Shown piece after piece: positions 34,860-39,508 of a DNA stretch of 64,000 bases. The stretch spans positions 3,345-67,344 of the forward strand of contig JBKCLO010000055.1 of assembly GCA_046300675.1 (NCBI GenBank), given 5' to 3'. A model generated the notes under the pieces. That model saw only the letters and a program-made list of their open reading frames with translations. It searched no databases and had not been told where the DNA came from. Origin of the DNA: Ignavibacteria bacterium. GTDB lineage: Bacteria > Bacteroidota > Ignavibacteria > Kapaibacteriales > Kapaibacteriaceae. A program made the position numbers and the translations under genes. Numbering within the stretch: the stretch's first letter is position 1; each line of letters opens with the position of its first letter.

Positions 34860-34869
34860 GTATAAACAA

Positions 34870-34883
34870 TATACAAAACGTAA
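34870..34883 (-). promoter_or_regulatory. Shared motif TTACGTTTTGTATA, 10 nt upstream of dnaE2
   Basis: Identical 14-mer also at 39495-39508 upstream of imuB. Confidence 0.65.
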
Positions 34884-34954
34884 ATAACGACGCATGAAAC
34901 TTGTTGTAGTTTCGCATGGTTACGTACGTTTTTACATTCCCTGAAAGTTTACAC

Positions 34955-35791
34955 ATGAGGCTCTGTCTATACAGTCTTTGCGCATTGTTCATACTGTCTA
35001 CTGCGAGTGCGCAAGATCTCAAGCTACCTGTGTTAAGTCCTGGAGCTTCGATATCACAGGAGATATCAACAACGAAAATCGAGATCAGCTATAGCAGACC
35101 ATCTATGCGCGGACGTACGATATTTGGCGACGTCGTACCCTACGGCATGGTATGGCGCACAGGTGCAAATTCAGCTACCAAGATCACCTTCGGCGAAGAT
35201 GTCAGCATAGGTGGTACATCTGTAAAGGCAGGCTCATATTCACTCTATACGATACCCGGTGAGCAGGAGTGGGAGGTTATCATCAATAAGAATACTGGTA
35301 ACTGGGGAGCGAACGGTTACGATACGAAGGATGATGTTGTACGTACAAAAGTTCGCTCAAGTGTTATCCAAACTCCCATTGAAACATTCACGATATCTAT
35401 CGGGGCGATTGGATTTTCATCATGCACGATAGATCTGGCATGGGAGCGTACACATGTAAGCATTCCTGTAGCGATACAAAACCAAGAGCGATTGCTTACA
35501 TCAATAGACAGAGCCATCAACAATCCAACAATCCCATACCAGCCTGCTGCAACCTATCTGTACGAGACAAATCAGCAGCTTGATAAAGCGCTCGACTATG
35601 CTACCAAAGCAGCAGAAAAGAATCCCAAGGCTTATTGGATCCAGTTACTTCGTGCCCGCATTGCTGCAAAGCTTGGCAAAGCAGATGTAGCTCGGGAGGC
35701 TGCTGCAAAAACTATCGAGCTGGCAAAGGGTACATCAGCAGAAGCCGAATACACGAAGAATGCTACGGACCTGCTTCGTACGCTGAAGTAA
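34955..35791 (+). CDS. DUF2911-family secreted protein with TPR-like C-terminus
   Basis: Signal peptide, then LSPGASISQ, ISYSRPSMRGRTIFG.VVPYGMVWRTGAN, WERTHV. Confidence 0.88.
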   Translation: MRLCLYSLCALFILSTASAQDLKLPVLSPGASISQEISTTKIEISYSRPSMRGRTIFGDVVPYGMVWRTGANSATKITFGEDVSIGGTSVKAGSYSLYTIPGEQEWEVIINKNTGNWGANGYDTKDDVVRTKVRSSVIQTPIETFTISIGAIGFSSCTIDLAWERTHVSIPVAIQNQERLLTSIDRAINNPTIPYQPAATYLYETNQQLDKALDYATKAAEKNPKAYWIQLLRARIAAKLGKADVAREAAAKTIELAKGTSAEAEYTKNATDLLRTLK

Positions 35792-35803
35792 TAGGGCTGC
35801 ATC

Positions 35804-38283: not shown

Positions 38284-38520
38284 CTAATCGTAGACTCTGG
38301 AAAGAACCCAACCTTGGATGCTGCTGTGATAGATCTCCATAACGCCAGAGCATGTAACAACAACTGAGTATTCACGTAACTCGTCACTACCCCACCATGG
38401 ACCACGACTGGTCCAAGCGTCAATGATGCGCTCTACAGTATAACTGCCACCGCGCCAACAAATCATGTAAAGTGATTTGTCGCGATGGGCAACATCAATC
38501 TGTTCTAGAATCTGCTTCAT
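38284..38520 (-). CDS. Small DUF6504/ImuB-C-like protein
   Basis: 78 aa with VERIIDAW...GPWW...REY...MEIY...WVLSRVYD. Starts 6 nt after the imuB stop. Confidence 0.75.
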   Translation of the reverse strand: MKQILEQIDVAHRDKSLYMICWRGGSYTVERIIDAWTSRGPWWGSDELREYSVVVTCSGVMEIYHSSIQGWVLSRVYD

Positions 38521-38526
38521 TGATCA

Positions 38527-39486
38527 TCATATCATTGGTGTGTCGTCTGTTCTCATTGGTACGATCTTTCCAAACTCCTCTGGAATAACAGACCACGGAT
38601 TGTTGATGACCACGTTTTTCATCACATGAGCATAGCGTGGAAGCAGACCTCGTGTGATCTGCTCGAAGCTGGACTCAGGTGCAAACATCAATGTCTGCTC
38701 AGCGATTGGAAGACCTAACGAGGCCAAGCCAATACGCAGACCCCACCATTGATGCTCTGCGCACAGCATCTCACGCATCAGCGTCTGCATGTGCTGTAAG
38801 AGTAGATCTTTGCTGTTGCTCCCTGAGCGTAGTATCCTGTTGCGCAAGTGTTGTGCTGCATCAGCCCTATCGAGAGAGGCCACCTCAACCCGCCATGCCA
38901 ATCGAGCGCCAAGTTGTATACAGGCATGTGAAACACATAGATCAAGAGCATGCATCAGCAGGCCAGGCTCACAACTGGGTTCATCAAAACGTTCAGTAAT
39001 AATGATTGATGGAGGGGGCACGTATAGCGGCAGCGGGGCGCTATCGTCTTCATGTATGAAGTGATACAGAGTAGATCCACGCTCTCCAAACTGCGCTTGT
39101 AAGTGACGTTCCGAAAGATGCCTCAACTTGCCTATCGTTTCGAGTCCGAATAGCTTTAATCGCTCAATATCATGTACATCGAGACGAAGTTCACTAACGT
39201 GCAATAACACGTTTATGGGGACATCATCAGCGCCCTCATGTACATCCAGACGGCCCGGTATGGCATTGCACGACTGCATTAATGCATCGTTACGTGAAGG
39301 GGCTATTGCCGCTTTAAGATGCTGAGACTGTACTAACTGACGCAATCCATGCGGATCATCAAGTCCACATAGAATCCTGCCTCTTGCTGGCAGACTTATC
39401 AGCGGTGTACAACGGTGTACCTGCTCAATGAGGTAGTCGTAATATGTAGAAGTATACAAACCGTATAATTGCATTGCAAAAAGCAT
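38527..39486 (-). CDS. imuB: ImuB/ImuY-like Y-family polymerase homologue, N-terminally shortened
   Basis: RCTPLISL, AIAPSR, HhH thumb LKLFGLETIGKLRHL..LQAQFG, little-finger region. No N-terminal Y-family catalytic motifs seen. Confidence 0.72.
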   Translation of the reverse strand: MLFAMQLYGLYTSTYYDYLIEQVHRCTPLISLPARGRILCGLDDPHGLRQLVQSQHLKAAIAPSRNDALMQSCNAIPGRLDVHEGADDVPINVLLHVSELRLDVHDIERLKLFGLETIGKLRHLSERHLQAQFGERGSTLYHFIHEDDSAPLPLYVPPPSIIITERFDEPSCEPGLLMHALDLCVSHACIQLGARLAWRVEVASLDRADAAQHLRNRILRSGSNSKDLLLQHMQTLMREMLCAEHQWWGLRIGLASLGLPIAEQTLMFAPESSFEQITRGLLPRYAHVMKNVVINNPWSVIPEEFGKIVPMRTDDTPMI

Positions 39487-39499
39487 AATGCAATTATAC
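39463..39499. repeat. 13-bp perfect inverted repeat over the imuB start region
   Basis: GTATAATTGCATT (39463-39475) - 11 nt - AATGCAATTATAC (39487-39499). Confidence 0.85.
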
Positions 39500-39508
39500 A
39501 AAACGTAA
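39495..39508 (-). promoter_or_regulatory. Shared motif TTACGTTTTGTATA, 8 nt upstream of imuB
   Basis: Identical to 34870-34883; a 12/14 copy lies at 39453-39466. Confidence 0.65.

Follow-up and report, generated by a model that had tools for sequence, protein, structure and literature searches.

A candidate SOS-type operator for the HTH-S24 repressor of a split-ImuB/DnaE2 cassette in Kapaibacteria

Why should two genes of one mutasome cassette begin directly behind the same 14 base pairs? The question is raised by a 64,000-nucleotide stretch of contig JBKCLO010000055.1 from an Ignavibacteria bacterium (the window), in which the exact 14-mer TATACAAAACGTAA occurs on the plus strand at 34870-34883, ahead of the gene for the error-prone polymerase homologue DnaE2, and again at 39495-39508, ahead of a gene for an ImuB-like protein. 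An initial annotation had given these coordinates and had placed the copies 10 nt from the dnaE2 ATG (34859) and 8 nt from the imuB-like ATG (39486), and our analysis confirmed both. The two genes, and that of a neighbouring protein with a helix-turn-helix (HTH) and an S24 peptidase domain (hereafter the regulator), are all on the minus strand, so that the motif as transcribed reads TTACGTTTTGTATA(A/T)T and ends 8 nt from the ATG of dnaE2 and 6 nt from that of the ImuB-like gene. The annotation had suggested either an operator overlapping the promoter and bound by the adjoining HTH-S24 protein, or an alternative-sigma promoter. As set out below, the dyad is probably an SOS-type operator of the adjacent HTH-S24 repressor, which would act by occluding the promoter.

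A third, palindromic copy, TATACAAACCGTATA, lies at 39453-39467. Allowing up to two mismatches, the 14-mer has three matches in the 64 kb where 0.28 are expected, and none of 100 dinucleotide shuffles reached three, a result that chance does not account for. For comparison we used 47 loci encoding full-length relatives of the regulator (labelled with L numbers below) and examined 48 regulator promoters, 47 of which carry xAC-N5-GTA at the same place in the promoter, 31-53 nt upstream of the ATG. In an unbiased count of every combination of k-mer, spacer and reverse complement over 36 non-redundant regulator promoters, ACA-N3-TGT was present in 28 and TAC-N5-GTA in 21, against a shuffle maximum of 10 for any 3-mer dyad, while TACA-N3-TGTA was present in 15 and CTAC-N5-GTAG in 11, against a maximum of 4 for any 4-mer dyad. 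All four top dyads nest within a single palindrome, (T)CTACA-N3-TGTAG(A), and the family consensus operator is CTACA-N3-TGTAG. The form TATAC-N5-GTAWA, which had been proposed from the window, holds as the clade-specific version but not as the consensus of the family.

The co-occurrence of the dyad with the regulator gene is what autoregulation would predict, and this phylogenetic footprinting backs the assignment of a promoter-overlapping operator to the adjoining HTH-S24 protein. Two regulator genes (L042 and L047) stand alone, with no mutasome genes nearby, and their own promoters still carry the dyad, which speaks for a regulatory role of the protein independent of the mutasome. In deep clades (L029, L036-L041), a second perfect copy, CTAC-AATTT-GTAG, is found 20-24 bp downstream with no promoter-like box attached, so that the dyad is more than a promoter element.

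A matrix built from the family has only four matches of at least 19 bits in the 64 kb, and all of them are in the cassette. The dnaE2 operator has the core TAC-GTTTT-GTA (34872-34882, minus strand; 25.1 bits), and its right half shares bases with the promoter box TATATT(G) at 34873-34867; from the hexamer of this box to the ATG it is 8 nt. Its core, TACGTTTTGTATAT, is unvarying in L002-L005 and L024, while the flanks differ. Operator 1 of the ImuB-like gene has the same core (39497-39507, minus strand; 21.1 bits) and overlaps the box TATAATTG (39498-39491), which is followed by catt and then by the ATG at 39486; it is kept in L001-L024 and L034. Operator 2 of this gene is the third copy mentioned above, a perfect palindrome TATAC-N5-GTATA (39453-39467) found only in the window clade (L001-L005, L024). 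Its palindromic nature and its distance of 42 bp from operator 1, about four helical turns, had been described correctly; its position had not, since it sits within codons 7-11 of the ImuB-like reading frame rather than upstream. The fourth site, the putative autoregulatory operator of the regulator gene, is GAC-ATATT-GTA (cGACAtatTGTAaat, 40316-40326, minus strand). At 21.2 bits, compared with 20.0-25.1 bits for the other three sites, it lies inside the promoter TTGTCA-17-TAAATT (40340-40312), and its spacer, read on the plus strand, includes the start codon (40322) of alkB, which is divergent. This site had been overlooked in the initial annotation, where attention was drawn to TAACTTTTG in the regulator leader, a sequence that proved irrelevant. 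The window sites thus take the forms TACG-TTT-TGTA and GACA-TAT-TGTA.

Across the related loci, the distribution of predicted sites tracks operon structure. In L027-L041 the ImuB-like gene abuts the regulator gene and there is no internal site; in the window, L001-L024 and L034 an intergenic promoter is present, and so is the site. Likewise, dnaE2 has its own site in both lineages in which independent insertions have split it from the cassette, namely the window clade and L017.

How, then, does the dyad relate to the promoters? In the intergenic sequences, GTA, the right half, runs directly into a promoter box of the form TATAAT-TG, TAGAAT-TG, TATATT-G or TAAATT-G. At the ImuB-like gene and dnaE2 of the window the box lies 5-8 nt ahead of the ATG, and a promoter scan of the ImuB-like gene gave TAGATA-16-TATAAT with a score of 10 of 12. 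The Bacteroidetes-type box TAnnTTTG occurs 16 times, compared with 4 expected, in 114 upstream regions of this lineage when counted on the sense strand, and 6 of the 16, from several loci, are exactly 4 nt ahead of a start codon; the window cases are at the starts of pheS (2681) and of the lysine 6-transaminase gene (49629, minus strand). Leaderless mRNAs thus seem to be common in the lineage. At the ImuB-like gene, box and ATG are separated by the same 4 nt as in these other leaderless genes, which suggests that this gene and dnaE2 are transcribed from ordinary housekeeping promoters as essentially leaderless mRNAs. An alternative sigma factor is then unneeded, as the box under the right half-site is a common housekeeping one, spaced as is usual for leaderless genes. 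Nor is TACGTTTTG the -7-like box with an extra T that it had been taken for: TA-N3-TTTG is not enriched in the lineage whereas TA-N2-TTTG is, and the true box is TATAATTG just downstream. The left half-site TAC is missing from the 16 generic TAnnTTTG promoters and, having no counterpart there, is not a promoter feature. Two start codons needed correction. The longest open reading frame (ORF) of the regulator (39518-40390) opens at a GTG and encodes 290 aa, but every homologue begins with the ATG at 40285, and both promoter and operator of the regulator fall within the longer ORF; the true start of alkB is 40322 and not the TTG at 40247.

The regulator itself (39518-40285, minus strand; 255 aa; HTH_3 and Peptidase_S24 in Pfam) has an XRE-type five-helix HTH in residues 1-70, then a linker that includes a long helix, a predicted Ala140-Gly141 cleavage site and a UmuD-like S24 domain with Ser176 and Lys213, and it ends directly after the S24 fold. 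A140, G141, S176 and K213 are unvarying in an alignment of 20 family members. The AlphaFold (AF2) model, with a mean predicted local distance difference test (pLDDT) score of 78, shows a five-helix XRE-type bundle, the long linker helix, a disordered cleavage region and a beta domain, the best PDB matches of which are UmuD' (top matches 1umu and 1ay9) and the C-domains of LexA and lambda CI. The HTH belongs to HTH_3 (PF01381), and the LexA winged-helix domain PF01726 was not found. The S24 domain resembles UmuD more than LexA, with 43% identity to E. coli UmuD' (BLASTP E value 7e-31) and 38% to the LexA C-domain. The NCBIfam UmuD model PRK10276 was passed with 125.9 bits (cut-off 110), whereas the lexA model reached 83.6 of the 110.95 bits required and matched the C-terminal part only. 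Plasmid and phage matches of the regulator are umuD genes, and annotation pipelines label the regulator gene 'UmuD' as well. A profile search of 1.8 billion proteins with the HTH alone returned results dominated by multi-HTH proteins. Within the family, the mean identity of the S24 domain is 76%, the highest of the whole cassette, compared with 59% for the HTH and 33% for the ImuB-like protein. An 860-bp ENA contig (P0080) joins a LexA winged-helix N-terminus to a regulator-like C-terminus with 70% identity over about half of the regulator; it was rejected as a natural hybrid and is probably a chimeric assembly, with its junction at the shared VVGDSM motif.

From this observed anatomy, conservation, domain content and set of catalytic residues, we infer DNA binding, RecA dependence and induction by damage as follows. 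A repressor dimer would sit on the 13-bp dyad with its right half-site over the first bases of the box (TATAAT-TG), so that binding would exclude RNA polymerase. Three promoters would be blocked in this way: that of the regulator, shared with the divergent alkB, that of the unit encoding the ImuB-like and ImuB-C-like proteins, and that of dnaE2. Upon DNA damage, RecA filaments on single-stranded DNA would stimulate self-cleavage at Ala140-Gly141 by the Ser176/Lys213 dyad; the HTH would thereby be cut off from the domain that dimerises, and transcription of the split-ImuB mutasome genes would follow.

The two operators of the ImuB-like gene are linked by a 13-bp perfect inverted repeat, GTATAATTGCATT / AATGCAATTATAC (39463-39499), with an 11-nt loop that contains the ATG, so that together they form one larger palindrome. 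A compensatory change from T:A to C:G has occurred in L003 and L004. The linked operators may reflect cooperative binding. Alternatively, the repeat could form a hairpin that hides the imuB-like AUG in read-through RNA from the regulator gene, and the predicted fold of such RNA has -22.2 kcal/mol with a z-score of -3.75; Rfam gave no match in 34000-41000. The repeat also mirrors the promoter box, as the plus strand likewise reads GTATAATTGCATT, here directed at the 3'-terminal part of the regulator gene, perhaps as an antisense promoter controlled by the same operator.

Several points weigh against an operator of the HTH-S24 repressor. No site was found ahead of a classical SOS gene in the 64-kb window or the fetched related loci, and recA itself is absent from the window and from all 160 fetched loci. 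We considered gyrA as a regulon member and rejected it: its site (56968-56978) is weak, at 10.7 bits, and about two such sites are expected by chance, and in a metagenome scan no gyrA relative was closer than 74% identity and no upstream sequence was conserved. Operator 2 of the ImuB-like gene is in coding sequence, and coding constraint confounds its conservation. Because the right half-site overlaps the promoter box, the promoter accounts for part of its conservation too. In addition, both sites of the ImuB-like gene and that of dnaE2 depart from the consensus at the innermost base of the left arm, with G for A.

The rival that survives best accepts a real operator but gives it another binder encoded elsewhere, e.g. 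canonical LexA or another XRE protein, and makes the HTH-S24 protein chiefly a UmuD-like accessory of the mutasome. The closeness of the S24 domain to UmuD, in identity as well as in the NCBIfam cut-offs, fits this proposal, and the genome is covered here by the 64-kb window only. We nevertheless regard it as unlikely, since the dyad accompanies the regulator gene in 47/48 loci, including those in which it has no mutasome genes as neighbours, the five-helix HTH is well modelled with residues unvarying across the family, and a UmuD accessory has no need of a DNA-binding domain. Still less probable is a motif that is only a promoter, either an extended housekeeping type or one for an alternative sigma factor, with no repressor involved. 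GTA is indeed fused to TATAAT, TAGAAT or TAAATT in every promoter-proximal copy, and the spacer is asymmetric, being T-rich along the direction of transcription. However, the left half-site is lacking in the generic promoters, the second downstream copies are perfect palindromes without a box, the palindromic symmetry reaches 5-6 bp per arm, and there is nothing unusual about the box, which is a housekeeping one at the 4-nt distance typical of leaderless genes. Finally, the 14-mers can scarcely be a passive by-product of a recent promoter duplication at the cassette split, or an RNA-level structure, instead of a selected protein-binding site: although two exact copies in one genome flank an insertion and the 13-bp inverted repeat would fold in read-through RNA, the core is unvarying across loci with DnaE2 only 70-75% identical while the flanks vary, the independent L017 split has the same dyad, the leaderless start leaves the left arm of the repeat untranscribed from the imuB-like promoter, and no Rfam family matches.

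If the HTH-S24 protein is the repressor of this cassette, as we prefer, it is tempting to ask whether the HTH-UmuD fusion is two proteins in one, the intact form acting as cassette repressor and the UmuD'-like C-terminal dimer, once freed by RecA-stimulated cleavage at Ala140-Gly141, as a subunit of the mutasome of dead Y-family polymerase (PolY), ImuB-C and DnaE2. In that case, the dimer would replace the missing ImuA (or the UmuD' of Pol V), and a single proteolytic event would both derepress and assemble a mutagenic polymerase. Hints in this direction are the UmuD-like character of the S24 domain, its rank as the most conserved part of the cassette, and the position of the regulator gene as first cistron of the mutasome operon in deep clades. 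The stand-alone regulator copies speak against such a dual role, which we consider rather doubtful.

The genes under the proposed control form one cassette, regulator, ImuB-like gene, 78-aa ORF and dnaE2, in about 40 of the 47 loci. The regulator homologues come from metagenome-assembled genomes of Candidatus Kapaibacteria, Ignavibacteria or 'Chlorobi'; in the NCBI taxonomy, Kapaibacterium belongs to Bacteroidota, class Eximiradiia. The ImuB-like protein (38527-39486, minus strand; 319 aa) is a Y-family polymerase homologue, as judged from a family profile searched against PDB (Pol IV 7yll, E value 5.5e-12), and family members match IMS, IMS_C and IMS_HHH. It is catalytically dead, with Gly-Arg aligned to the catalytic Asp-Glu. 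Compared with deep relatives, about 55 residues are missing after the first ~10 aa in the window clade and L006-L025, and with 319 aa in the window as against 368-402 aa in L027-L041 this is a further reduced dead polymerase. The 78-aa ORF (38284-38520, minus strand), present in every locus with the ImuB-like gene on one side and dnaE2 on the other, matches Pfam DUF6504 with 24.3 bits at a cut-off of 24.2, and its assignment as a standalone ImuB-C-like protein relies on this threshold match together with position. The dnaE2 gene (31737-34859, minus strand) encodes a 1040-aa homologue of error-prone Pol III alpha, identified by Pfam and by NCBIfam, where its best match is 'error-prone DNA polymerase' PRK05672 with 854.9 bits.

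In the window clade (L002-L005, L024), two genes of the opposite strand are inserted between ImuB-C and dnaE2, a DUF2911 gene (34916-35791, plus strand) and a PIG-L family gene (35804-38281, plus strand). A second operator-like sequence ahead of the DUF2911 gene (34918-34935) was discarded, as relatives do not keep it. Between dnaE2 and this divergent gene, about 49 nt ahead of the dnaE2 ATG, lies an inverted repeat GAAACT-N6-AGTTTC (34896-34913). Its arms are 8 bp long in relatives and differ there by a compensatory change, being GCGAAACT/AGTTTCGC in L003 and GCTAAACT/AGTTTAGC in L002; the position is not that of a terminator. In L017 (12092-16187), four unrelated ORFs on the same strand as the cassette are inserted at the same place; they are in tandem, about 310 aa each, and the short repeats gttcgctgt and gcgaatag surround the dnaE2 operator there. 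Short tandem repeats of 7-9 nt are also found beside cassette promoters in L035 (10705-10880) and L026 (10730-10800) and upstream of the regulator in L029 and L030; the units in L035 are e.g. cccgtactc/ccgtaatc, and some contain GTAC or GTAA and are half-site-like.

On the other side of the regulator, alkB, encoding a 2-oxoglutarate/Fe(II) (2OG-Fe(II)) dioxygenase, is divergent (40322-40912, plus strand), an arrangement kept in L001-L014, L024, L034 and L163. With its start codon within the regulator operator, it is a candidate co-regulated gene. In the two alkB homologues checked for an independent site none was found: the Kapaibacteria-like P0267 is divergent to the regulator gene as in L001-L014, and P0304 is in an unrelated context. 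In the 757 kb of related loci, there are six matches of at least 15 bits outside the cassette, none of which precedes an obvious repair gene. The window also contains two giant ORFs, 13929-20753 (2274 aa) and 50954-56923 (1989 aa); a perfect ATCTAC-N5-GTAGAT palindrome inside the second (54157-54171) was judged to be a chance occurrence as it is intragenic.

Among known systems, the closest are the HTH_3-S24 repressors of Bacteroidetes, or non-canonical LexA proteins, which bind 13-bp dyad-N5-dyad boxes and control translesion polymerases (PMC8565304). Their boxes are CTAA-N5-TTAG, GGA-N5-TCC and TTAC-AAATT-GTAA, the last verified in Elizabethkingia anophelis by electrophoretic mobility shift assay (EMSA) (Sanchez-Osuna et al. 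2021, PMC8565304). The earlier statement that the motif matches no LexA box was therefore too strong, as its dyad-N5-dyad layout is the design of these boxes. The regulator shares with them the N-terminal PF01381 HTH, the C-terminal S24 domain with Ala-Gly, Ser and Lys, and, at the level of sequence, a 13-bp dyad-N5-dyad with an AT-rich spacer; its predicted sites, too, are at the promoter of its own gene and at those of error-prone polymerases, frequently in pairs. The family CTAC-N5-GTAG differs from the Bacteroidetes CTAA-N5-TTAG by one base per arm, and the E. anophelis site verified by EMSA has TACA-N3-TGTA as its core. The published CTAA-N5-TTAG box was also recovered independently, as ACTAA-N5-TTAG upstream of five (L063, L065, L066, L067, L069) of the Chitinophagaceae 145-aa umuD genes that are distant S24 relatives of the regulator (L063-L070). 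In contrast to the regulator, both published Bacteroidetes LexA groups have a C-terminal coiled-coil extension; the S24 domain here is UmuD-like, and BLASTP against the published C-domains WP_025606010.1 and WP_075324850.1 (Supplementary Data S5, PMC8565304) gave no match at E<=10. The regulator also differs in heading a split-ImuB/DnaE2 operon. It is, by these comparisons, a separate fusion of an HTH_3 head to a UmuD-like body and not an orthologue of the published proteins. No homologues were reported outside Bacteroidetes in that survey, which did not include the Kapaibacteria lineage (PMC8565304), and our full-text literature searches for an SOS response or LexA in Kapaibacteria found nothing.

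Canonical LexA shares the S24 domain, the Ala-Gly cleavage site and the Ser/Lys dyad, but the regulator lacks the winged-helix domain PF01726. UmuD shares the type of S24 domain; unlike UmuD, which has a short arm of ~24 aa and an adjacent active umuC, the regulator has a 140-aa N-terminal part with an HTH, and its neighbour is a dead PolY, followed by ImuB-C and dnaE2. By architecture, it is analogous to UmuDAb of Acinetobacter, a UmuD-derived S24 protein with an added N-terminal DNA-binding region, and both are called UmuD by pipelines. UmuDAb self-cleaves at Ala-Gly and represses error-prone polymerase genes; it depends on DdrR as co-repressor, its operator of 21 bp is built around GTnAC, and its N-terminal domain is undetected by Pfam (PMC11332147), in contrast to the clear HTH_3 and simple 13-bp dyad here. 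No ddrR-like gene was noted in the cassette. FddR of Francisella, a co-opted phage repressor, binds GTG-N11-CAC and is not linked to a mutasome operon (PMC13148647); like the regulator, it is a non-LexA S24 repressor with autoregulation through a palindrome and a small damage-responsive unit with divergent genes, comparable to the regulator/alkB pair, for which such a role is putative.

With respect to the genes controlled, the LexA-regulated imuA-imuB-dnaE2 cassette has variants with lexA in the operon (PMC6511836). Here too, the gene of a self-cleaving repressor (cleavage being predicted in our case) heads or adjoins the DnaE2 operon, with an operator on the cassette promoter; the differences are that imuA is missing, ImuB is split and the repressor is not a winged-helix LexA. 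The combination of inactive PolY, standalone ImuB-C and DnaE2 with no imuA is the Kyrpidia tusciae type described by Timinskas and Venclovas (PMC6511836), also 'DnaE2X' (PMC12926913). Gene content and order are the same, with a dead PolY, a small ImuB-C-like ORF and no imuA in the cassette, but lexA is a frequent operon partner of that mutasome, whereas here the partner is an HTH_3-UmuD-like fusion, and the window clade has the further N-terminal PolY deletion of ~55 aa.

What appears to be new, then, is the repressor lineage together with its box, and both would work like known ones. Since pipelines name the gene 'UmuD', the regulator would be systematically overlooked; with the motif, one could set out to predict the damage regulon of such genomes and to study the control of a split ImuB/DnaE2 mutasome without ImuA. 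If our reading is true, this is a further independent case of an SOS circuit rebuilt from S24 peptidases with different DNA-binding heads, here an XRE-type HTH on a UmuD-like body, from an uncultured and deeply branching lineage of Bacteroidota that lies beyond the published survey. The operator is near-identical to the Elizabethkingia box despite the unrelated C-domain, which raises the question of whether the head has been exchanged between S24 scaffolds.

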